From positions 1,373,722-1,437,721 of the forward strand of contig JBHYGA010000001.1 of the NCBI GenBank assembly GCA_051859245.1: a stretch of 64,000 nucleotides of DNA. The letters are read 5' to 3'. Within the stretch, counting starts at the first letter, position 1; every line of letters begins with the position of its first letter. The translations under genes and the position numbers were made by a program. Positions 19,548-31,158 of the stretch are shown one piece after another. The stretch comes from Gemmatimonadaceae bacterium. Its GTDB lineage: Bacteria; Gemmatimonadota; Gemmatimonadetes; Gemmatimonadales; Gemmatimonadaceae. The notes under the pieces were generated by a model, which worked only from the letters and a program-made list of their open reading frames with translations, was not told where the DNA came from and did no database searches.

Positions 19548-19875
19548 AGGTGTACGAACGGCCACGAAGATCCTGATTCCTGAATGAGATCGAAGCAAAG
19601 GCGGACGCCGGTAGAGTGCGAGTGTCGGTTGGTGCGACGACTTTGCGTAGCGAAAGCGGTGCTCCGACCTGTCACGAACGCGTAACGCGCGCCGCCGATT
19701 CGTTTGTGTTGTTTGCCACCGAACGACGTGAAATGATGTGAACTCGTCGTCTATCCGGCACGAGTTCTCCTCTGCACGCGCGAAAGAGCGGTTGTGTCAC
19801 AGGCGAGACGTTCTACGTTAAAAAGTTGGGGGCGTGCGCGCCCTTTCACACTTTTTACCGAGGGCCGTAGTCATC

Positions 19876-22122
19876 TTGCTACTCGCGACCGATCTCGATG
19901 GGACATTTCTCGGCGGCCGACAGGCTGACCGTTTGACGCTGTATCGCACGATCCGTGCAACTCCGCAGATCCGTCTGGTTTTTGTAACCGGACGTGGCGC
20001 CGAATCCGTGCTGCCTCTGCTGGCTGATCCGCTGGTACCCGATCCTGAGTTCATCATTGCCGATGTAGGCGCCACCGTGTTGCACGGCGATGGACGAACG
20101 CCCGTCACGCCACTGCAGTGGGAACTCAGTGAGCGTTGGGTGGGCACCGAGCCCATTTTGCAATCGCTGGCAAACTTTCCCGGGCTCGTGCGACAGCGAG
20201 TGCCGCAAGAGCGCCGCTGTTCGTTCTTTCTCGATGATGTGACACACGTTGATGCGATTCGCGAACGGCTCGCGCATCTGGATGTTGATGTATTGCTGAG
20301 TGCCGAGCGCTATCTGGATGTGCTGCCACGCGGTGTGTCCAAAGGTGATACGCTCACGCGACTTGTGGCACAACTCGGCGTGGATGCGGGCGATGTGCTT
20401 GTTGCCGGCGACACTATGAACGACCTGTCGTTGTATGAAACCGGCTATCGCGGCGTCGTGGTAGGGCAGGCAGAACCGCTGCTGGTCAACGCCACACGCC
20501 ATCGCGAACGGGTGCACATTGCATCGTCGCCTGGCGCGGGTGGAATTCTTGAGGCAATTGAGCAGATCGGACTGAACATCGCACCACAGGTCGATAGTCC
20601 TGCGGGCGACGCGCAGTTGGTGGTGGTGTACCATCGACTACCGTACGAGGAAACGGGGAAGGACGGTGTTGTCTCGCGACAACGCCATACCAGTCCCAAC
20701 GGAATCGTGCCCACGTTGCTCGGCTGCTTCGAAGAGGGAAGGCACGGCTCGTGGGTTGCCTGGACCGCGCATCACGACGGCTCCGGCGCGACATCGCACG
20801 ATCTGGTCGATGAAGATCGTTTTGCGAATCTCGTTGCTGCCAAGGTACCGCTCACTGCCGACGACGTGCAGCGCTTCTATAAGAAGTTTTCAAAGGAAGC
20901 GTTCTGGCCGGTGATCTTTTCGTTTGTAGATCGCGCACGATTCGTGGAAGCCGACTGGCTGCACTTTCTGGAGATCAATCGCAAGTTCGCGGAGACGGCG
21001 GCGGCCGAAGCTGACTACGGTGCGTTAGTCTGGATCCACGACTACAACCTGTGGATGGTGCCGGCGTATCTGCGGCAGCTGCGCCCGGATGTCCGCATTG
21101 GCTTCTTTCACCACACCGCGTTTCCACCCGCCGATGTGTTCAATGTGATTCCGTGGGCGGGACAGATTGTCGGTTCGCTGGCGCAGTGCGACTACATCGG
21201 ATTTCACATTCCGCGGTACGCCGCAAACTTCCTCGATGTACTGCGATCGCATTCGCCCACCGAAGTGCTGGAAACCATGCACTGCGCGCCACGATTCCGT
21301 GTACACGGTGGCGCACTCGCGATTCCGCGCATGCCGTCACTGGTGCGAAGTGGCGATCGTACCATTCGACTCGGTGCGCATCCCGTTGGTGTGAACGTGC
21401 GGGCCATCCGGCGTATTCTCGCGGATGCACAGCGGCTTGAGCAGATCAAAGCCATTCGTGATCGCTTCCGGCACACGAAGCTTGTGCTCTCAGTGGAACG
21501 ACTTGACTACGTGAAGGGTCCGTTGCAAAAGCTGGAGGCGTTTGAGCGCATGCTTGACGCGCATCACGAGCTCCGTGAGCAGGTTACGCTGCTCATGGTG
21601 ACGACGCCGCCAGCACCGGGCATGGAAGTGTACGAGGAAGTGCGTGAAGCGGTCGATCAAGTAGTCGGCCGTATCAATGGCCGATTTTGTACGCTCGATT
21701 GGACGCCCGTGCACTACCTGTTCCGTTCACTGCCGTTCGAAGACGTCATCGCCTACAGCGCAGCGGCTGACGTTGCCTGGATCACACCACTGCGCGACGG
21801 TCTGAATCTGGTTGCCAAAGAGTTCATCGTGGCACAGCATACCACAGAGGGCAATGGTGTGCTGGTGCTTTCCGAGTTTGCGGGTGCTGCGGTGGAAATG
21901 CATGGCGCGCTGCTGACCAATCCCTACGACGTGGAAGGCATGGCGCGCCATCTTCATGATGCACTGGTGCTGCCTGAGGGTGCGCGGGCGCTGCACGTGC
22001 GGCGACTCGCGGCAATCGTTGAACAATCCGATGTAGACGCCTGGAGTCAGGAGTTCTTGTCGGCCATGGCCGGTGACTCAGGCAGCGCGCTTGGATCGTC
22101 TGCGGCAGTCGCACCGCGGTGA
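19876..22122 (+). CDS. Fused HAD-IIB phosphatase / GT20 glucosylglycerol-phosphate synthase (GgpPS-like)
   Basis: N-terminal DLDGT, TGR, KG, GDTMND; C-terminal [44 protein letters not shown] start at 19876 inferred. Confidence 0.88.
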
Positions 22123-23133
22123 CTAGTTGTCACCGAGCCGAGCCTCGAGCAGCGCGACCAATCGATGCGCCGCGAGTGCCAGGCGGTGTCTGGCAATCAC
22201 TTCGCCTCTGCTCAGATAGCCTTCCGAGAGTACGGGTGGTGCGTTGCCATTGCGAGCGGGCAACTCGTACACCACGTATCGGGCAAGCGTTGCACTCTCG
22301 TCAGCCCACGACTGCACCGTGGCCGCGAGGGCCGCGCCGTCGGGGATGATGAGATCGTCGCCGGGCGTCGCGGCCAGCGGCAACGCGGCGGCGATCAAGG
22401 TCGCCACGGAGTCAAGCGGAAGATCGCGAGACACACGACCGACCATGCCGTCCCACACGGCATGCAAGTTGGTTGAATCGCGATCACTGCCGGGAATTTT
22501 CGCCCACACGCGATTCGCACCGGCGTCTCCATCAGGTGACGCTACCGTTGAGCGCGACGTGCCGTGCACAGGCTGATGTAAATCGCCGACGATGTGAATG
22601 ATCCAGCCGAGGTGATATGCGCGCACGCTGGCGGGAATCGCCTTGTCCGCTAACGCGTCGGCCATCTTTGGCATTTCCGTGCTGACGTTGGGCGCTGTCA
22701 GCCGAATCGTCGTTGTTCCGTCTGTCGAGAACGAACGCGTGAGGTAATGCCAACCCTCCCGTCGTGCCATCGTCGGAAATCCGGGGAGCAGCGGCGTTGG
22801 CGTCGCCTCTGGACTGGTCTCGCGATAGAAGCGTGCATCGCTTCGAATGCGATCCGGCCATACGGATGCGCGCAGAAAGATCTCCCGCACGCCGTCGGCC
22901 GTTTGCGCGTCAAGGCCTTCGCTGAGGCTCACGAGGTCTGGATGCTCGCGCAGCAATGCGTTCACGCGTGCACGGGTGGGTTGGCTGAGTCGATCGTAGG
23001 CCATCGCAGCCATCGCGCGGTGGCCTACGGCGTCCCACCGAAACAGGGTTGTGGCCGTTGGCGAGGCGAGGGAATCTGGCGTGACATTCGGCGTCAGCAG
23101 CAGCAAGAACGCAAAGTAGAGAAGAGAAGTCAT
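22123..23133 (-). CDS. S1/P1 nuclease family protein, secreted
   Basis: Signal peptide; WDAVGH, WPD, WHY, HIVGDLHQPVH, DAGAN, NLHAVWD zinc-ligand motifs. Confidence 0.92.
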   Translation of the reverse strand: MTSLLYFAFLLLLTPNVTPDSLASPTATTLFRWDAVGHRAMAAMAYDRLSQPTRARVNALLREHPDLVSLSEGLDAQTADGVREIFLRASVWPDRIRSDARFYRETSPEATPTPLLPGFPTMARREGWHYLTRSFSTDGTTTIRLTAPNVSTEMPKMADALADKAIPASVRAYHLGWIIHIVGDLHQPVHGTSRSTVASPDGDAGANRVWAKIPGSDRDSTNLHAVWDGMVGRVSRDLPLDSVATLIAAALPLAATPGDDLIIPDGAALAATVQSWADESATLARYVVYELPARNGNAPPVLSEGYLSRGEVIARHRLALAAHRLVALLEARLGDN

Positions 23134-23215
23134 CTCACAACGTAAATCGAGTGCCGCCGTTCAGGTTGGGTCGTCCGGTAACAACGTGTATCGATTTCAA
23201 AGAGTGCTCGTTCGG

Positions 23216-24391
23216 TCAGGCACGTGCTGCGAGCTCCATGCCTGGCGAGAGCATGCGACGCATCGCGCTGATACTGACGGCATCAGGGGTGGCACGCATG
23301 ATGCTGCGTGCGAACGCACTGCCGAAAGCGCTCGACCATTGCCCCAGCGCGCCGAGCTGACGACTCGTGCGCACAATTGCGGCGACGCGTTGAGAACGCG
23401 CTCGTTCGTAGCGTGCAATCGCGTCGGCAATGCCTGATGCCTCGCGCAAACACAATAGCAGCGACAGCACATCTTCGAGCGCCATGGCCGCACCCTGTCC
23501 AAGATTGGGCGTGGTGGCGTGACTCGCGTCTCCAATGAGTGCCACGCGATCGCGTCCCCACACCTGCGATGAGAGGTCCTCAATGTCATGACGCATCAGC
23601 ACGTTCTCGTGGCTCTTCGCCAGCGCATCGAGCACGGGTCGCGCCGCGCCTCCAAACTCGGTAAATCGCTGCGCCACCCACGCATTGCGGTGACTCGTTG
23701 GGTCCTGGCCACCCGCAGGCGCATTTTCTGTCAGAAACAGATACAGACGACCGTCACGTAGTGGCACCAGACCAACCCGCTTGCCGCGTCCCCACATTTC
23801 GATCACATCCGTGATCCCGGAAACATTGGGCACGACCGCGCGCCAACACGTGTAGCCCGCGTACCGAACGCGCGCTTTGGTGTGCGGGAAGGCAACGTGG
23901 CGAACACGCGAGCGCAATCCGTCTGCACCGATGACGAGCGCGTATTCCGCGCGGTGTGCATCCGTGCGGTGCGCGATGACCGCGTCGTGTTGGATTTCGA
24001 CGCGCTCAATGCTGGCGCCAAACACCACGCGCGATTCGTCCACGCCGTGCACCAGCAGCTGATGCAAATCCGCGCGATGCACGGCCAACGGCGGTGCAAA
24101 CGCCGCACCGAGCGCTGACATTTCCATACGCTGCAGTTCACCACCGCGCGCATCCTGCAGCAGCATCACCGGCAGTGGCTGACCAAAGGCTTGTAGTGGA
24201 TGCGCCGCGCCCAGCACCTCCAGCACGCGTTGCGCGTTCGCGCCAAGGACCAATCCCGCACCCAGCGGTTCAAAGCGCGGTGCGCGTTCCAGGACGTCGA
24301 CCAACGCGCCCTCGCGCGAGAGGGCAGATGTCATCGCGAGCCCACCGATGCCGCCACCAACGACGAGAATGGGCAGTCCGGACAGGTTCAT
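23216..24391 (-). CDS. FAD-dependent monooxygenase (group A, salicylate hydroxylase-like)
   Basis: GGGIGG, GADGLRSRVR, GDASHATTPNLGQGAAMALED. Confidence 0.92.
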   Translation of the reverse strand: MNLSGLPILVVGGGIGGLAMTSALSREGALVDVLERAPRFEPLGAGLVLGANAQRVLEVLGAAHPLQAFGQPLPVMLLQDARGGELQRMEMSALGAAFAPPLAVHRADLHQLLVHGVDESRVVFGASIERVEIQHDAVIAHRTDAHRAEYALVIGADGLRSRVRHVAFPHTKARVRYAGYTCWRAVVPNVSGITDVIEMWGRGKRVGLVPLRDGRLYLFLTENAPAGGQDPTSHRNAWVAQRFTEFGGAARPVLDALAKSHENVLMRHDIEDLSSQVWGRDRVALIGDASHATTPNLGQGAAMALEDVLSLLLCLREASGIADAIARYERARSQRVAAIVRTSRQLGALGQWSSAFGSAFARSIMRATPDAVSISAMRRMLSPGMELAARA

Positions 24392-25041
24392 GGCGCGTTC
24401 CTCCGCGTTGAGCGCGTGTTGGGCTCGGAAGCTCGCGATCTCTTGACGCGCGACGCACTGGCAGCGCTGGCAGGGAAGGTGACACTCAGCAGCCGATCGA
24501 GTTCGTGCACCATATCGTCTGGTTTCATTGTCGCGTTCCGCAGCCCGTGCAGGAGCACGGTCAGGTACAAGCCGAAAAACGCGGTCGCTGCGTCCAGCGC
24601 ACTGACACCTTCACGCAGCAGGCCGTCGCGCACGATGGTTTCGGCGACGTCTCCGAGAAAATCCTGCAGCGTTTGTGTACTCAGCGAGTCAGGGGGTGTT
24701 GGCACAAACAGCGCTTGCTGCACCAAAACGGCCGAAAGCGCCGGCTGTTTGGCGTAGTATCGGTACAAGTGTTTGGCGAGATGCAGCAGACGGTCTCGAC
24801 CGCTGGCCGGCGCACTCGCGCGCGCTCGCTTGAGCACGCGCTGCAAGTCGTCGTGCAGCGCCTCCTGCAGCAGCGCCCCTTTGTCCGCGACGTGCACAAA
24901 CAATGTGCCCACCGCCACCTCGGCGCGTTCGGCGACCGCCTTCATGGTGGTGCCGTCGAATCCGCGTTCCGCGAAGATCTCGCGGGCGGCATCGAGCACG
25001 CGGGCACGAGTCTCGGTTTTTCTGAGTTGGCGTGCTGGCAT
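24388..25041 (-). CDS. TetR/AcrR family regulator
   Basis: RARVLDAAREIFAERGFDGTTMKAVAERAEVAVGTLF HTH; 4-nt overlap with the monooxygenase. Confidence 0.9.
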   Translation of the reverse strand: MPARQLRKTETRARVLDAAREIFAERGFDGTTMKAVAERAEVAVGTLFVHVADKGALLQEALHDDLQRVLKRARASAPASGRDRLLHLAKHLYRYYAKQPALSAVLVQQALFVPTPPDSLSTQTLQDFLGDVAETIVRDGLLREGVSALDAATAFFGLYLTVLLHGLRNATMKPDDMVHELDRLLSVTFPASAASASRVKRSRASEPNTRSTRRNAP

Positions 25042-25068
25042 GTACGACCGGGCGCGGAACCGAAAAAA

Positions 25069-25094
25069 GTGAACCCATTCGGTGAACGCGTTCA
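25069..25094. promoter_or_regulatory. Candidate TetR operator
   Basis: Perfect palindrome TGAACGCGTTCA (25083-25094) plus imperfect copy TGAACCCATTC (25070-25080), just upstream of the tetR start. Confidence 0.5.
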
Positions 25095-25147
25095 GTGTAT
25101 TGCGCTGGTCTGTCCCGCGCAAGTGTAGCCTCTGAGCGCCATACTAG

Positions 25148-25618: not shown

Positions 25619-27598
25619 TTAGCGCTGCTCGGCGACGGGCCGTGAGATGCGTATCCATTGTTCGACAAGCTGCGCAAACTCAGCGCGATAGTGCCCCTCG
25701 TCATCACCCATGGCGCCGCGTGCGAGACGCAGGATGTCCTCTGCGGTGGTGGTGCCCATGTGCTCCGAGCCGCGCAAAAGCATGCCGAACGATGCAACCG
25801 ATGACGCGAAGCGGAAATCTTCGGACGTGCTCTGGCCCGATGAGGCGAGACGCACGGGTTGTGTGATCAGGTCACTCGTTGAGGCACCGGGCTTCTTGTA
25901 GCGAAGCTTGACGAACAAGAGTTCACTGCCTGCAGTAGCGGTACGAGCGGTGGATGTGGTGTCATACCGCGACCCGTCCGCTTCACGAATGTTTGCGCTG
26001 GTTGCTGCGCCGTGCGGCACCACTTCGTACAGCGCGGTGACCGTGTGTCCGGACCCGATGTCGCCGGCGTCCTTTTGGTCATCGGCAAAATCTTCGTTGC
26101 GCAGCAGCCGGTTTTCGTAGCCGATCAGACGGTAGGCACGAACAACTGACGGATTGAACTCAACCTGTAGTTTGACATCGTTTGCCACGGTCACCAGCGT
26201 AGCGCCCATCTCGCGAATGAGCGTTTTGCGCGCTTCGCCGATGTTGTCGATGTACGCATAGTTGCCGTTGCCGACCTTGGCGAGTTTTTCCATCTTCGCG
26301 TCCTGAATGTTCCCCGTGCCGAAACCAAGCACGGTCAGATAGGTGCCTTCCTTTCGTTTGGTTTCAATCAGGCGTTCCATTTCTGCATCGCTGCTTGGGC
26401 CGACATTAAAGTCGCCGTCACTTGCCAGGATCACCCGGTTGTTGCCTTCGCGCATGAAGTGCTCCCGCGCTGTGCGATAGGCGAGCTCGAGACCTGCGCC
26501 GCCAGCGGTCGAGCCGCCGGATTCAAGGCGGTCGATCGCGTTCATGATGGTTGTTTTCTGCGAGCCAGATGTGCTGGGCAGCACGAGACCAGCGCTTCCT
26601 GCATATACCACCAATGCCACGCGATCCTGTTCCCGCATCTGCTGCACCAGGAGGCGCAAGGATTCTTTTACCAGCGGCAGTTTGTCAGGGCTGGACATTG
26701 AGCCCGAGACATCAATCAAAAACACGAGATTGTTGGCTGGCAACTTTTCCGTGTCAATGCGACGCGCCTGTAGTGCAATGCGCACCAGCTGATGATTGGT
26801 TTGCCATGGCGCGGGTGCGACTTCCGTGGTGATTGCAATCGGATCCTTGCCGCGTGGTGCGTCCAGCGTGTACGGGAAATAGTTCACAAGCTCTTCAATG
26901 CGCACGGCGTCGGGCGGCGGAACGCGACCTTCATTCAAGAAGCGTCGCATGTTGCCGTACGACGCACGGTCCACATCGATGGAGAACGTGGACAGCGCGT
27001 TGCCGGTGACCGCGAGGAACGGATTGTCTTCAATGCGGTCGTACTGCTCACGATTGCCAATCACGTTGTCAGCAGCACGATCGTCGCGGAACTTCACGGT
27101 GGACGGGGTAACGGTCGCAGGCGTTGCCAGGACTGGCGAAGAGAGCCCACGCGGTCGGCCCTCCCGCAACTCGTGCGAAGCAACCACGACCTGACTCAAC
27201 CGTGAGACGTGCGCCGCAAGTTGGATATCGGCACGCACCGTGTCTGCGCGCGCTTTCACCACAATCGTCTGCGCGCTGTAACCGATGCGTCGTACTTGCA
27301 GTGTGACCGAGCTGCCGCGTGTGACGTTCGAGAGTTTCAGCGTGTACTGGCCGTCCGCGCCGGTGGTCGCACCTTCACCCGGGGTGCTGTTCACTCTCAA
27401 CACCTGAGCCCCTGCAACGGGTGATTGCGTTGCCGCATCACGCACCGTGCCGACTACAACGATCGTCTCGCGGTTTGCCGCAACTTGCGACGCGTCTGGC
27501 GCTGTGCGCTCGTGCGCTGGCGCAAGTATCGCGAGCATTGCTCCAACTGCCGGTACAGCCAGGAATCGTGCAATCGCCGATCGGGATAGGTCAAACAT
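25619..27598 (-). CDS. Secreted VWA domain protein (YfbK-like) with N-terminal carboxypeptidase-regulatory-like domain
   Basis: Signal peptide; GQYTL/RRIGY/LSQVVV domain; STFSIDVDRASY; MIDAS DVSGSM, T and SDGDFNVG; C-terminal RLIGYENR/KLRYK. Confidence 0.9.
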   Translation of the reverse strand: MFDLSRSAIARFLAVPAVGAMLAILAPAHERTAPDASQVAANRETIVVVGTVRDAATQSPVAGAQVLRVNSTPGEGATTGADGQYTLKLSNVTRGSSVTLQVRRIGYSAQTIVVKARADTVRADIQLAAHVSRLSQVVVASHELREGRPRGLSSPVLATPATVTPSTVKFRDDRAADNVIGNREQYDRIEDNPFLAVTGNALSTFSIDVDRASYGNMRRFLNEGRVPPPDAVRIEELVNYFPYTLDAPRGKDPIAITTEVAPAPWQTNHQLVRIALQARRIDTEKLPANNLVFLIDVSGSMSSPDKLPLVKESLRLLVQQMREQDRVALVVYAGSAGLVLPSTSGSQKTTIMNAIDRLESGGSTAGGAGLELAYRTAREHFMREGNNRVILASDGDFNVGPSSDAEMERLIETKRKEGTYLTVLGFGTGNIQDAKMEKLAKVGNGNYAYIDNIGEARKTLIREMGATLVTVANDVKLQVEFNPSVVRAYRLIGYENRLLRNEDFADDQKDAGDIGSGHTVTALYEVVPHGAATSANIREADGSRYDTTSTARTATAGSELLFVKLRYKKPGASTSDLITQPVRLASSGQSTSEDFRFASSVASFGMLLRGSEHMGTTTAEDILRLARGAMGDDEGHYRAEFAQLVEQWIRISRPVAEQR

Positions 27599-27635
27599 GT
27601 GTACGCTCCAGTGTGGTAGTGAAAGTCCGCACTGG

Positions 27636-27664
27636 TAGACGCCGACTCGGCCAAAACTTGCACA
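27636..27664 (-). promoter_or_regulatory. Putative ECF-sigma promoter upstream of the VWA gene
   Basis: Minus strand TGTGCAAGTTTTG-GCCGAGTCG-GCGTCTA; both arms identical to the motif at 29662-29690. Confidence 0.75.
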
Positions 27665-27674
27665 CTCCTGTGCA

Positions 27675-29102
27675 TCAGTTGTTGCGCGAGCAGCGCTGTG
27701 ATGAGGTGTCGGCCATGAATTCGATCTCTTCACGTCGCATAATCGCAGTACGCACGTTCGCGCTACGAAGGCTCGTATCACGAATGTTGGCATTACGAAT
27801 GTTCGTATTACGAATGTTTGTATCACGAATGTTCGTATCACGAACGTTCACGTCACGCGCGTTCGCATCGCGCGCGATTGCACCGAGCGTTTCCGTCACC
27901 GTTCCGAACCATGCACTGTCATCGGCGTGCAGTTCGAACACAATGACGGCGCTGCCACTGACGCCGCGCCCTGTCAGTGTGCCCATGGCGTCCAGATCAA
28001 ACTTCGCGTCCGTTCGCGCGTCGCGCGTGGGCCAGCCCACCAACGTGAGCGTAAGTGCACCCGAGGCAGGCAGCGGCCCGCGCAGCATGCGAAGCATGGG
28101 CGCGCGACCACTCGATGAATCAGCAACGGCAACGAGACACTGCGACCGGCGCGGGGCAGGGAACGCTCGCGCCGACGACACCACGACCTGGCTGAGCGCC
28201 ATGACAGACGGAGTCAGTTCAAAGTTGACCGTCGTGGAATCCAGCGAGCCGCTGGCAATGGGTAGCGACGAGGCGGTGTAACCAATCCGCCTCGCGAGCA
28301 GTGCCGTCGCGTTCACCGGAACGTTGCGCAGCGTGTATTGACCCAGCGAATCCGTCACGACGCCAAGCGCGCTTCCGGGTACGGACACGCTTGCGCTGGC
28401 GAGCGGTCTGCCGCCGTCTGTCACGCGCCCGCTGACCGTGATCAAAGTGGTCGTCGCGACATCCGCCACTGCGCGACCAGCTGGCGGTGTCGCTGCGACC
28501 TCAGGCAACGCGCGCTTGGTTGGAAGTGAGGCATCTGGCTTGGGCACGGCTGGCGTGGCCGCACTCACCGGTTTTGGTGACGCGGGCGTGCGAACGGCAG
28601 CAGACGCAGTCGCCACCGTGCTGTCGCGCGTACCGTCGCGCATACCGTCGCGCGTACTGTCGCGCGTACGGTCGCTCGCGCGGTCGCGGTTCCCCATGTA
28701 CGACACGCCGGCGATCATCAGCATGAGCCCGGCGGCGATCTGCGCCACGAACCGCGTGCGCCAGCGTGAACTCGTCTTTGCCTTCTCCATCGGCGCGCCG
28801 GCGACAATGCGCGCCGACGCACGCCGCACATCGTCACGCGAGATAATCGACCGCGTTGTCACTTCCGCCGCATTCACAATACGCGCTGAGGCCGCAATAA
28901 ATCCGCGCGCCTCGGCCACCGCAGCATCGCAGCTTGCACACGAGCGCACGTGTTGCGCCACGGTGTTACTGTCATTGCGGTCCATCGCGCCATCAAGCCA
29001 GGCATGAATCGATTCTTCGGAGACATGACCATCCGTTGTCCATTCCGGACGGAACGTCGATGAGTCGAACGCGCCCAGCACTTCGTCGTCAGGATGCGGC
29101 AT
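27675..29102 (-). CDS. Zinc-binding anti-sigma factor (HxxxCxxC), single TM, extracytoplasmic carboxypeptidase-regulatory-like domain
   Basis: IHAWLDG...HVRSCASC; TM IAAGLMLMIAGVSYM; GQYTL/RRIGY/LSQVVV; overlaps the ECF sigma stop. Confidence 0.85.
   Translation of the reverse strand: MPHPDDEVLGAFDSSTFRPEWTTDGHVSEESIHAWLDGAMDRNDSNTVAQHVRSCASCDAAVAEARGFIAASARIVNAAEVTTRSIISRDDVRRASARIVAGAPMEKAKTSSRWRTRFVAQIAAGLMLMIAGVSYMGNRDRASDRTRDSTRDGMRDGTRDSTVATASAAVRTPASPKPVSAATPAVPKPDASLPTKRALPEVAATPPAGRAVADVATTTLITVSGRVTDGGRPLASASVSVPGSALGVVTDSLGQYTLRNVPVNATALLARRIGYTASSLPIASGSLDSTTVNFELTPSVMALSQVVVSSARAFPAPRRSQCLVAVADSSSGRAPMLRMLRGPLPASGALTLTLVGWPTRDARTDAKFDLDAMGTLTGRGVSGSAVIVFELHADDSAWFGTVTETLGAIARDANARDVNVRDTNIRDTNIRNTNIRNANIRDTSLRSANVRTAIMRREEIEFMADTSSQRCSRNN
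27751..27870. repeat. Eight degenerate 15-bp tandem repeats (consensus CGAATGTTCGTATCA) in the anti-sigma 3' region
   Basis: Units begin at 27751, 27766, 27781, 27796, 27811, 27826, 27841, 27856; encode NIRDT-type pentapeptides. Confidence 0.9.
28618..28689. repeat. Six degenerate 12-bp tandem repeats (GTAC(C/T)GTCGCGC) encoding RDST/RDGT after the anti-sigma TM
   Basis: Units at 28618, 28630, 28642, 28654, 28666, 28678. Confidence 0.85.
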
Positions 29103-29607
29103 TTGCACCTCCACGCTCGTGTTCCCGCGCCAGCCCTTCGTAGCTTCGCACCACCTTCTTTCTCGCTCGCGTGAGTGTTGTGCCGACCGATTGCACGGAG
29201 AGACCCAGCGCGGCCGCAATCTCCTGGTAGTTCAATCCTTCCTGACTCATGTACAATGCGGCCCGGTCGCGCTCGGGGATGTCATTCAACGCTTCACGCG
29301 CCAGGATCGAGCGCCGCGCGTCGTCCGGGGAAACGTCCTCCGGCTCTGGCGCGCTATGCGACGCGTCGGCGTGCAATGCCATCAGATGCCGTCGCTGGCG
29401 CGTTTCCCGTCGAATCAGGTCACGAATCAGATTAGTGGCCACCGCAAAGAGCCACGCACGCTCATGCACCAGCGGTTGATGTCGCAGCGCGCGCACAAAC
29501 GTCTCCTGGGCCAGCTCCTCGGCCAGATCAGCGTCATGCAGCTGTCTGGTGAGATAGCGGACCAGTGGCGTGTGGAACTCGCGAAACAGACGCTCAATCT
29601 CTTGCAT
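29089..29607 (-). CDS. ECF RNA polymerase sigma factor
   Basis: Region 2 AEELAQETF...AWLFAVATN; region 4 EGLNYQEIAAALGLSVQSVGTTLTRAR. Confidence 0.93.
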   Translation of the reverse strand: MQEIERLFREFHTPLVRYLTRQLHDADLAEELAQETFVRALRHQPLVHERAWLFAVATNLIRDLIRRETRQRRHLMALHADASHSAPEPEDVSPDDARRSILAREALNDIPERDRAALYMSQEGLNYQEIAAALGLSVQSVGTTLTRARKKVVRSYEGLAREHERGGANAAS

Positions 29608-29661
29608 GCAGCAGGGTGCAGATTCATCAAGGCGTCCCGTATTCCGGCCGCGTCTTCATGC

Positions 29662-29690
29662 TAGACGCGCGACCCCGCAAAACTTGCACA
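29662..29690 (-). promoter_or_regulatory. Putative autoregulatory ECF promoter upstream of the sigma gene
   Basis: Minus strand TGTGCAAGTTTTG-CGGGGTCGC-GCGTCTA. Confidence 0.75.
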
Positions 29691-29723: not shown

Positions 29724-30497
29724 CTACGAACCGCCTGCTGTCGTCCCCGGCATGGGGAGACGATCGTCCACCAGGAACTGCGCTCGCTCGAAGACGTGGG
29801 TCTGTCTCGAACGCGTGAGATCACCACGCGTGAAGTCCACGGCGTTGCGCGTTGCGGTACAGTGCCACCGTTCGAAGTGTTGTGGCTGGGCCTGGTGGAA
29901 CACGGCGGGTGTGAATGCGCCGATGTTCACGCCCCCGTCGGCATCTCGAGCCGATTGATACGTGAACATCTCGACCTGAGCCTCGCGCATGGCGCGGCCG
30001 AGCGGCTGCGACGCGTGGTAGGATACCGGCGACGAGATCTCATTGGCGTAGGCAAGGAAGGGCTGTGTGGTCAGCTCGACGGCGCGCGCGCTGCGCATGC
30101 GCACGGTGAAACTTGAGAGCGAGGTGGTCACCGGCTCCAACGCCGCGTGTGTGCCTTCCAGGAACAGCAGTCGGTAGTACGCCACTTCGGCAAAGGCAGT
30201 GCGTTGCTGCAGCGCGCCATACCAGATTCCGCGTTCCTGTCGGGATCCAAAGCGCGAGCCGTAGCGCAGCGGCGGATATCGAAACGGTGTGAAGAGCAGG
30301 TAGTGCACGTTCGCCCCCTCTCGCGCCGGCGGCTTTACCCGCTCGATCAACTCCTCGAGCAACTCCTGTTCGGCCGCTGAGTCGACCAGTTTGCGCGTAG
30401 AGACTTCGTGCTGCGATTCGACCACGCGCCACGCGGCGCACCGCAGCGCGCGGATCTCAGAGTTGCCCGCGCATTGCATCCAGATACTGGACGACAT
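29724..30497 (-). CDS. RES domain toxin (NAD+ phosphorylase family)
   Basis: WRVVE (R), GSRFG, AEVAYY (E), YQSAR (S); downstream of an Xre/MbcA antitoxin. Confidence 0.88.
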   Translation of the reverse strand: MSSSIWMQCAGNSEIRALRCAAWRVVESQHEVSTRKLVDSAAEQELLEELIERVKPPAREGANVHYLLFTPFRYPPLRYGSRFGSRQERGIWYGALQQRTAFAEVAYYRLLFLEGTHAALEPVTTSLSSFTVRMRSARAVELTTQPFLAYANEISSPVSYHASQPLGRAMREAQVEMFTYQSARDADGGVNIGAFTPAVFHQAQPQHFERWHCTATRNAVDFTRGDLTRSRQTHVFERAQFLVDDRLPMPGTTAGGS

Positions 30498-30834
30498 CCA
30501 CCAGTCCCTCGACGGTTCGGATTCGCTCGGCGGGCACGCCGCCGAGATGGTCGTTCATGGACAGGAACCAGCCGCGCGCCTTCGTGTCATCACCGCCCAC
30601 GAGGGCGTCGAGGGAGCGAAAGAGCCGCACGAACATGAGCGCGAGTTCGCCTTCCTTGCTTTCCGGGTCCACGCCGCGACTGTGTTGCATGCGGGAGACG
30701 GAGGCCTCGCTGACACCGATCACGGCGGCAAGCTGGCGGCTCGTCAGTCCGAGGCGCTCAGCGGCTGACCGTGCCGCCTTGGCGACCACCAAGGCAGGGT
30801 TCGGATTGGTGAGAACAGTGGAGACAGAGCGCAT
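30457..30834 (-). CDS. Xre/MbcA/ParS antitoxin
   Basis: HTH LAAVIGVSEASVSR; C-terminal ARGWF..N.HLGGVPAERI...VVQYLDAMRG. Confidence 0.88.
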   Translation of the reverse strand: MRSVSTVLTNPNPALVVAKAARSAAERLGLTSRQLAAVIGVSEASVSRMQHSRGVDPESKEGELALMFVRLFRSLDALVGGDDTKARGWFLSMNDHLGGVPAERIRTVEGLVDVVQYLDAMRGQL

Positions 30835-30841
30835 GATTGAA

Positions 30842-30870
30842 AGAATACGGCACGTTTCTTTCTTGTGCAA
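30842..30870 (-). promoter_or_regulatory. sigma70-like promoter of the Xre-RES operon (probably leaderless)
   Basis: Minus strand TTGCAC-N17-TATTCT, ATG 7 nt downstream. Confidence 0.6.
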
Positions 30871-30904
30871 GCGTTGGGCTACTGTCGGCCGTCTGGAGTG
30901 GGCC

Positions 30905-30933
30905 TTGCACCAGGCCTCCAAGTTGGCTAATCT
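30905..30933 (+). promoter_or_regulatory. sigma70-like promoter of the rpmJ-rpoA operon
   Basis: TTGCAC-N17-TAATCT. Confidence 0.55.
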
Positions 30934-31158
30934 CAAGGTCTTGGCCTGAATCGGCTCCGTTTTGTGCGGGGGCGGTGCAGGCAGTCGTGTCGGCCCGCCG
31001 GCCACTTTTCCCAGCACATGTGCGCGGGATCGTCGTATCTCAACCGGGATACATCAACGATGCATCACATGTGATCCACCGACGAACTTCCGTCTGCAAA
31101 GCGGTTGTTCGCCACGGCGCGTAAGCGTCGGGACGCGCGAGCGTCGAGGGTATTCATC

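Follow-up and report, generated by a model that had tools for sequence, protein, structure and literature searches.

How is an extracytoplasmic function (ECF) sigma factor switched when its anti-sigma factor and a neighbouring secreted protein with a domain of the von Willebrand factor A (VWA) type both carry the N-terminal extension (NTE) of a SusC-type transporter, each ending in the hexamer LSQVVV? The question is raised by three genes in a stretch of 64,000 nucleotides (the window) from a Gemmatimonadaceae bacterium (assembly GCA_051859245.1, contig JBHYGA010000001.1, positions 1,373,722 to 1,437,721). In our numbering the host genome is G000 and the window is G000:C1:1373722-1437721. The original prediction for this locus held that the anti-sigma could be a client of TonB which reports TonB availability or envelope energisation, and that the induced VWA protein could compete for the same partner. 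We lean towards another reading, which we hold to be marginally on the probable side: the locus would be one copy of a Gemmatimonadaceae-wide pair of ECF sigma and anti-sigma, forming an autoregulated envelope-stress switch with an exported VWA protein as its main predicted target.

Gene calls and profile searches verified the anatomy of the module. The three genes are co-directional on the minus strand and encode the ECF sigma (P0003), a single-pass anti-sigma of the zinc-anti-sigma (ZAS) type (P0001) and a YfbK-type VWA protein (P0002), the last two separated by 76 bp; their coordinates are given in Table 1. P0003 is short and has regions 2 and 4 only, as is characteristic of ECF (group IV) sigmas; it scores 72.1 bits with TIGR02937 (cut-off 42.9), and homologs at E<=1e-30 occur in 245 of 300 genomes of the family. 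P0001 follows the ZAS pattern with an N-terminal HxxxCxxC, a gene at position +1 and one transmembrane helix, so that the motif and the hydropathy bear out the earlier description of this protein. Among 68 trimmed anti-sigma homologs, at least 60 have HxxxCxxC, a ZAS gene occupies +1 in most of the 71 loci of the clade, and the zf-HC2 profile, which at 20.3 bits stays slightly below its cut-off of 22.2 in P0001, is above it in 24 of the 25 homologs scanned. P0001 is likely to be a zinc-binding inhibitor of its sigma, as far as these features predict. P0002 consists of a likely signal peptide, the NTE, a disordered linker, vWF_A, VWA and YfbK_C (= DUF3520). It has an N-terminal hydrophobic stretch at residues 8-26 (Kyte-Doolittle 2.08) and is likely exported, and its metal-ion-dependent adhesion site (MIDAS) is intact (DVSGS, Thr, Asp). 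The combination of vWF_A, VWA with MIDAS and YfbK_C places it in the YfbK family, and its description as a secreted VWA/MIDAS protein with DUF3520 is supported by the profile matches, the hydrophobic stretch and the MIDAS.

The promoter-like motif of the clade, TGTGCAAG-N15-CGTC, stands before both the sigma gene and the VWA gene. The more extended form GTGCAAGTTTTG-N10-CGTCTA has exactly two matches in the genome, before these two genes, while 100 shuffled versions of the window gave no match. In a looser form (GCAA, 16 bases, CGTC) the pattern turned up before 41 of 54 VIT-VWA genes and before 19 of the 23 sigma genes lacking a VIT-VWA neighbour, and in none of 54 internal controls; all 60 sites began with the same TGT, which lies outside the search pattern. 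Relatives also have free YfbK genes, and TGTGCAA-N16-CGTC precedes 28 of 50 of these (58 loci less 8 dropped for short flanks), lying upstream of the core by 515-778 bases, and never on the opposite strand. The motif is predicted to be a promoter and the sigma to regulate its own synthesis. Because the motif is common to the sigma gene, the VWA gene and more than half of the free YfbK genes, the sigma very likely controls the VWA gene directly, and the earlier view of its product as the induced protein is well supported as a prediction.

The regulon predicted in this way is small. Ten genomes contained 21 motif sites against 3 in the reversed control, and the genes behind them were VIT-VWA (5), sigma (3), YfbK (3), SIMPL (3) and DUF4349 (2), with single cases of a serpin, a DUF4139-like protein, an NTE-Plug-VIT protein, a phosphodiesterase and a protein of no family. 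When 41 genomes were searched there were 68 sites versus 13 controls; 28 further sites examined lay before VIT-VWA (13), sigma (3), SIMPL (3) and YfbK (1) genes, and 8 were without assignment. Neither the clade loci nor these 21 and 28 sites showed a TonB gene behind the motif, the 28 having been classified by BLASTP with 8 outside the Pfam scan. The other well-placed sites of the host genome precede a SIMPL (DUF541) gene at G000:C4:293770, a proline-rich lipoprotein without Pfam family at C5:268124, and the VIT-VWA operon of a paralogous module (G000:C4:603064-608338; L219). This module consists of a PAS/GGDEF-like gene (by eye), VIT-VWA, sigma and anti-sigma. Its sigma is 52% identical to P0003 and its anti-sigma has a different C-terminal domain without Pfam match; since the same motif precedes the paralogous operon, the two sigmas may cross-talk. 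Elsewhere the motif precedes a serpin lipoprotein (L236, genome G582) and, in genome G124, whose sigma locus has no VWA neighbour, a lipoprotein with NTE, box, Plug and VIT (L247:2350-5643) followed by an L,D-transpeptidase gene.

A census of partners was made over the 71 loci. VIT-VWA lies directly upstream in 54 of them, a separate YfbK gene lies downstream in 4, YfbK is fused to the anti-sigma in 6, and 7 have neither within the stretch fetched; in one of these (G348) a YfbK gene follows the motif some 8 kb downstream. VIT-VWA and YfbK never occur together at a locus. The constant partner of this sigma clade is a VWA protein, and the two kinds are interchangeable. The fusions form one clade (Shimodaira-Hasegawa-like approximate likelihood ratio test 98), with the fused NTE grouping with the NTEs of YfbK proteins. 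The three-gene synteny, whose conservation had been proposed as a check, is confined to the 4 loci with a separate YfbK gene, and was rejected as a conserved unit. Of the 61 unfused anti-sigmas, 44 have no NTE, and it is also lacking in all 54 VIT-VWA partners. NTE and box are therefore an optional part, which the switch, to judge from the sequences, does not need in most relatives.

The proposed switch has four steps. The anti-sigma would hold the sigma at the inner membrane, as its ZAS motif, single helix and +1 position suggest. Periplasmic damage or a ligand would be read, most likely by a barrel in the anti-sigma and/or by the VWA protein, and the sigma released. Regulated proteolysis releases the sigma in other single-pass ZAS systems, and by analogy it is the probable route here. 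Once free, the sigma would transcribe the operon in which it lies, together with the VWA gene and the genes for a small number of exported proteins, SIMPL among them, as predicted from the conserved motif. The VWA protein would be the output and, going by the fusions in relatives, would probably also take part in sensing or feedback. With its TonB-box end, the NTE would be a SusC-type accessory module that may tether or tune the two proteins, possibly via TonB. This scheme has its observed basis in the anatomy, in the census of partners and in the promoter motif. It is supported by ECF226, ECF289, ECF35 and ECF255, which in the consulted part of the classification by Casas-Pastor et al. (2021; PMC7826278) likewise pair ECFs with VWA-DUF3520 proteins.

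The barrel, at the C-terminus of the anti-sigma, was modelled with eight strands in the avidin/streptavidin fold. Its identity to the avidin family is 5-15% and it has no Pfam Avidin match. We regard it as a candidate sensor domain, in which Cys322 and Cys471 likely form a disulfide. A tandem repeat inserts a loop of RDTNI type that is missing from the four closest anti-sigma orthologs. Another repeat, of 12 bp, makes an RDST-type linker in the anti-sigma (window 28623-28688), and the paralogous anti-sigma of the same genome carries an ERDIA repeat.

Several points count against the switch as formulated here. The 71 loci are not a random sample. YfbK stands beside the sigma at only 2 of 15 loci, several of them ended by contig edges, and the exact motif is absent before 22 of the 50 free YfbK genes. 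In the anti-sigmas the box does not look like a dead remnant, with its transporter-like score and its survival in 9 of 44 proteins that lack the NTE. The term envelope stress is a likely one which builds on the exported targets and on the roles of SIMPL, serpins and proteins like the inter-alpha-inhibitor heavy chain (ITIH); the signal, the proteolysis, the transcription, the inhibition and the feedback are likely steps which we infer.

What, then, is the significance of the shared end? The original prediction saw the same domain of about 90 residues in both proteins. The family is indeed the same (PF13715), and the NTE of P0002 matches that of PDB 6ytc (E 0.007), but the copies are just 37% identical and each is nearest to the NTEs of its own orthologs. 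Neither P0001 nor P0002 matches Plug or TonB_dep_Rec at E<=0.1, which confirms that they lack the plug and the barrel of TonB-dependent transporters, and a TIGR04056 match covers only profile positions 1-83 of 981. The idea that barrel-less proteins with an NTE are rare was considered and rejected: PF13715 has 57 matches in the host genome, 41 above the cut-off, in 50 carrier proteins, and 19 of the 50 are barrel-less, namely P0001, P0002 and 17 proteins of <600 aa without barrel by Pfam. The remaining 31 were called transporters mainly from their length and C-terminus, and both of two scanned had barrels. Five tandem barrel-less PF13715 genes, all ending alike and two with a C-terminal Plug match, lie at G000:C4:807971-815074 (L206), and further proteins with NTE and plug only are scattered through the genome. 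A TonB-dependent receptor reading frame at G000:C1:1469363-1471450 stops after 695 aa, lacks an aromatic C-terminus and is possibly broken. TonB7 and TonB11 of Bacteroides thetaiotaomicron carry PF13715 too, according to the part consulted of PMC10350073.

The identity of the two hexamers carries little weight because of the low identity of the NTEs and their affinity to own orthologs, because L-x-x-V-x-V is the usual end of PF13715 in the host genome, where LSQVVV fills the last columns of the domain, and because only 1 of 6 other anti-sigma/YfbK pairs shares its hexamer while 5 differ (the pairing being provisional for 2 of the 6). A long host protein of transporter type (C2:6460-9789) has an NTE that ends in LSQVVV as well, and identical hexamers arise by chance in 13 of 780 pairs of transporter boxes. 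The two stretches coding for LSQVVV differ at 4 of 18 bases; this, with the identity, the ortholog grouping and the unlike pairs, rules out the hexamer as the mark of a duplicated or matched pair. Conservation likewise concerns the pattern. Exact LSQVVV is found in 3 of 109 NTE-bearing YfbK homologs, and the closest ortholog reads LSMATV in its place, but L-x-x-V-V-V is kept in the unfused homologs (L in 65, the V positions in 56, 47 and 49 of 80). The presence of the domains and of the motif class is far beyond chance, and the exact identity of the hexamers is a coincidence with a chance of a few per cent.

Whether LSQVVV might act as a TonB box can be judged against Gray et al. (PMC7782687), in whose consulted parts the SusC-type NTE corresponds to PF13715 and is followed by a box, VDEVVV in Bt1763, that is essential and unstructured, in Bt1763 by nuclear magnetic resonance. 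In AlphaFold models LSQVVV is not a strand in either protein, the predicted local distance difference test falling from 79 to 49 in the anti-sigma and being <50 in YfbK, and a buried core strand, which would have spoken against a box, is not seen: the hexamer is exposed in both. A functional TonB box would have the pattern L-x-x-V-V-V exposed and directly after the NTE, which is how it is placed here. Judged by sequence and models, the motif is a real TonB-box homolog. When the boxes were scored with leave-one-out, the medians were 15.0 for the anti-sigmas (n=17) and 15.1 for the transporters (n=40), versus -1.2 for the 17 other barrel-less NTE proteins and -4.6 for linker controls; these scores come from training boxes that were partly chosen by pattern, one of them from the flagged genome G021. 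The boxes of the YfbK proteins are degenerate (median 7.4, n=74), 36 of 74 scoring >=8 as against 0 of 74 in the linker control. The claim of a SusC-type NTE with a TonB-box-like motif is thus upheld with respect to homology, exposure and pattern, and the scores are transporter-like in the anti-sigmas only.

A model close to the original prediction postulates that host TonB binds or pulls the box of the anti-sigma and so controls release of the sigma, while the induced YfbK protein competes and provides negative feedback. We consider it unlikely, though deserving of attention. In its favour are the homology to the proven box of Bt1763, the exposure and the transporter-like scores, the NTE-box-Plug-VIT lipoprotein behind the motif of one relative, and the 9 matches to TonB_C in the host genome. 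One TonB C-terminal domain, encoded at G000:C1:1359891-1360604, lies upstream of an exbB-like gene. (One host protein of 625 aa, at G000:C4:309143-311020, has two TonB_C domains and, by eye, an N-terminus like peptidase M56/BlaR1.) Box-like motifs occur in 9 of the 44 NTE-less anti-sigmas, compared with 7 of 250 control genes, with a Fisher p of 9e-5 that is overstated because related genomes are not independent, and several of them sit in a plain low-complexity linker (L104, L123, L137, L114, L145), surviving the apparent loss of the NTE. A Bacteroides finegoldii locus of ECF255 type has an anti-sigma with NTE, then LSEVVV, then TonB_C, and a YfbK protein with NTE and LEECVVV. The model is opposed by the 35 of 44 NTE-less anti-sigmas without a significant box, by the commonest partner, VIT-VWA, which never has the NTE, by the degenerate YfbK boxes, by the absence of TonB genes from the motif targets found and by the anti-sigmas themselves, none of 68 in the clade having TonB_C by a local profile (best E 0.057) and P0001 having no PF03544 at E<=0.1; the reservations about related genomes and pattern-chosen boxes also apply. 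As the principal account of the locus, the anti-sigma as a TonB client is not supported, in view of the missing NTEs, the missing boxes and the lack of a tonB gene among the motif targets found.

Two further models do without TonB. One takes the box as an internal docking strand, which would pair with the edge of the VWA sheet or with the anti-sigma barrel, or as an exposed strand for recognition by a protease, giving feedback within the module; the fusion of anti-sigma and YfbK in one clade, the exposure of the box in the anti-sigma model and its retention after loss of the NTE, at 110-165 residues from the C-terminus and just before the barrel, are in accord with this. It does not explain why most NTE-less anti-sigmas beside VIT-VWA have no box, and a TonB-type partner fits better with a box sequence that tracks the transporter boxes down to the trailing TG, so that we find docking distinctly improbable. 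The other hypothesizes a link between regulator and target only: NTEs and boxes would be neutral spacers, copied repeatedly from transporter genes, and the VWA protein would stand outside the signalling. In its favour, PF13715 is promiscuous in the host, a tree of low resolution scatters the anti-sigma NTEs between those of transporters, and YfbK is present in 55 of 300 family genomes only, mostly unlinked to the sigma. Against it, the L and V positions are conserved while the linker that follows is not, and the fusions put YfbK where the sensor would be, an arrangement also seen in ECF226 and ECF289 (PMC7826278, consulted part); we regard this model as having very little probability.

Compared with these models, the autoregulated switch with an optional NTE and box remains our preferred reading. 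A broader conjecture may still be formulated, which we think rather unlikely: a TonB-coupled signalling logic, with boxes on barrel-less inner-membrane anti-sigmas and on their VWA targets, arose at least twice, ECF255 using its own TonB_C and the present, unrelated Gemmatimonadota clade borrowing host TonB. The motor would read envelope energisation into transcription, the VWA protein would be a decoy, and the box would become a free motif after loss of the NTE. If the box does depend on TonB, then TonB acts on an inner-membrane regulator without a transporter, which bears on the role of the SusC NTE.

Table 1. Features of the sigma/anti-sigma/VWA module, in window coordinates
Feature	Position	Strand	Remarks
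Predicted ECF promoter 1	29662..29689	-	-35 GTGCAAG, -10 CGTCTA; 5' of sigma gene
ECF sigma P0003	29089..29607	-	172 aa; Sigma70_r2 and r4_2 only
Anti-sigma P0001	27675..29102	-	475 aa; start overlaps sigma stop
Zinc-anti-sigma motif HxxxCxxC (HVRSCASC)	28929..28952	-	residues 51-58
Predicted single transmembrane helix	28695..28751	-	residues 118-136; Kyte-Doolittle 1.81
Anti-sigma NTE (PF13715)	28179..28442	-	53.5 bits; ends in TonB-box-like LSQVVV (28179-28196)
Anti-sigma C-terminal eight-stranded beta-barrel, avidin/streptavidin fold	27678..28145	-	structure model
15-bp tandem repeat	27743..27876	-	RDTNI-type loop insertion in barrel
Predicted ECF promoter 2	27636..27663	-	in 76-bp gap before VWA gene; -35, -10 and spacing as promoter 1
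VWA protein P0002	25619..27598	-	659 aa; YfbK-type
VWA-protein NTE (PF13715)	27182..27463	-	44.6 bits; ends in LSQVVV (27182-27199)

Directly upstream of the sigma gene lies a pair of genes for an Xre/MbcA antitoxin and a RES-domain toxin (window 29724-31017, minus strand). A RES-Xre-like pair, judged by eye, also stands beside the unlinked YfbK gene of genome G004 (L039); a link was rejected, since the pair recurs there but not at the other listed loci. Downstream of the module are genes for a TetR regulator, an FAD monooxygenase and an S1/P1 nuclease by Pfam (window 22123-25122, minus strand), and then, at 19834-22122 on the plus strand, a gene for what we take to be a HAD phosphatase-glycosyltransferase fusion of the trehalose/glucosylglycerol type.

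It remains to compare the locus with known systems. It shares with SusC-type transporters the NTE followed by the box (Bt1763, PMC7782687; PDB 6ytc, 9hfj; sources consulted in part), and differs in lacking the plug and the 22-stranded barrel; TonB dependence has been shown for the transporters only. With FecIRA-type signalling it has in common an ECF, a single-pass anti-sigma and a TonB-related element, but it has neither a FecR nor an STN domain and no transporter is linked to it, the ZAS motif being found instead, so the distinction from classical FecIRA drawn in the original prediction stands. The YfbK core has the architecture of the ITIH/VIT-VWA family, at 16% identity and without a VIT Pfam match in P0002. 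Motor-coupled vWA transducers (PMC12204202, seen in part) were rejected as relatives, being membrane-tethered and syntenic with tolQ-like genes, unlike P0002. The accessible literature, largely without subscription papers, contained nothing on YfbK or VIT/vWA with ECF or anti-sigma, on a TonB box with a carboxypeptidase regulatory-like anti-sigma, or on SIMPL/DUF4349 with ECF, and the papers found on ECFs of Gemmatimonadota are, going by their titles, apparently unrelated.

Among the ECF groups in the consulted part of the supplement of Casas-Pastor et al. (PMC7826278), none has the promoter found here or mentions VIT domains. ECF25 has a Gemmatimonadetes subgroup, s4, and its subgroups s1 and s2 use GGAAC/GTC, unlike the motif of this locus. 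ECF226 and ECF289, with VWA and DUF3520 fused to the anti-sigma, and ECF35, with a DUF3520 protein at -1 or -2, resemble the locus in pairing an ECF with a YfbK-type VWA protein, an overall plan shared by its fused relatives. The locus differs in that its proteins are separate and NTE-bearing and in that these groups belong to other phyla; ECF289 has moreover a -35 of CCCAAGGA, and an ECF289-type sigma from Rhizobium is 29% identical to P0003 over 104 residues.

The closest counterpart is ECF255 (98% Bacteroidetes), whose single-pass anti-sigma has TonB_C as well as a carboxypeptidase-regulatory-like domain and whose neighbouring soluble or secreted VWA-DUF3520 protein carries the same domain; its supplementary text already proposes a TonB-box contact (PMC7826278, part consulted). 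The locus is like it in the anti-sigma at +1 with such a domain and in the neighbouring VWA-DUF3520 protein that repeats it. It is unlike it in having an avidin-fold barrel and a ZAS motif in P0001 instead of its own TonB_C, in having the VWA gene at +2 and not at -1, and in its promoter, TGTGCAAG/CGTCT as against the published TATGGAT/GCATCT. The arrangement is thus less new than the original prediction implied, while TonB_C and promoter still set the locus apart. P0003 is 22% identical to a single B. finegoldii sigma, assigned to ECF255 by architecture, and because this identity is so low the same parts were likely assembled twice. ECF systems with VWA-DUF3520 proteins (ECF35, 226, 255, 289) have been catalogued, with their VWA partners described from genomes only (PMC7826278, part consulted). 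To these the present locus contributes a sharp promoter motif, a regulon that is predicted to be small, two VWA partners that can replace each other, a fusion that occurs in nature and, as candidate sensor, a domain of avidin fold. The motif, the regulon and the interchangeable partners make the function of bacterial YfbK and VIT-VWA proteins directly testable here. Judged by its sequence, the locus works like the ECF255, ECF226 and ECF289 systems but falls outside ECF255 on TonB_C and promoter, and it is apparently a further version of independent origin, from a phylum whose regulation has been little described.

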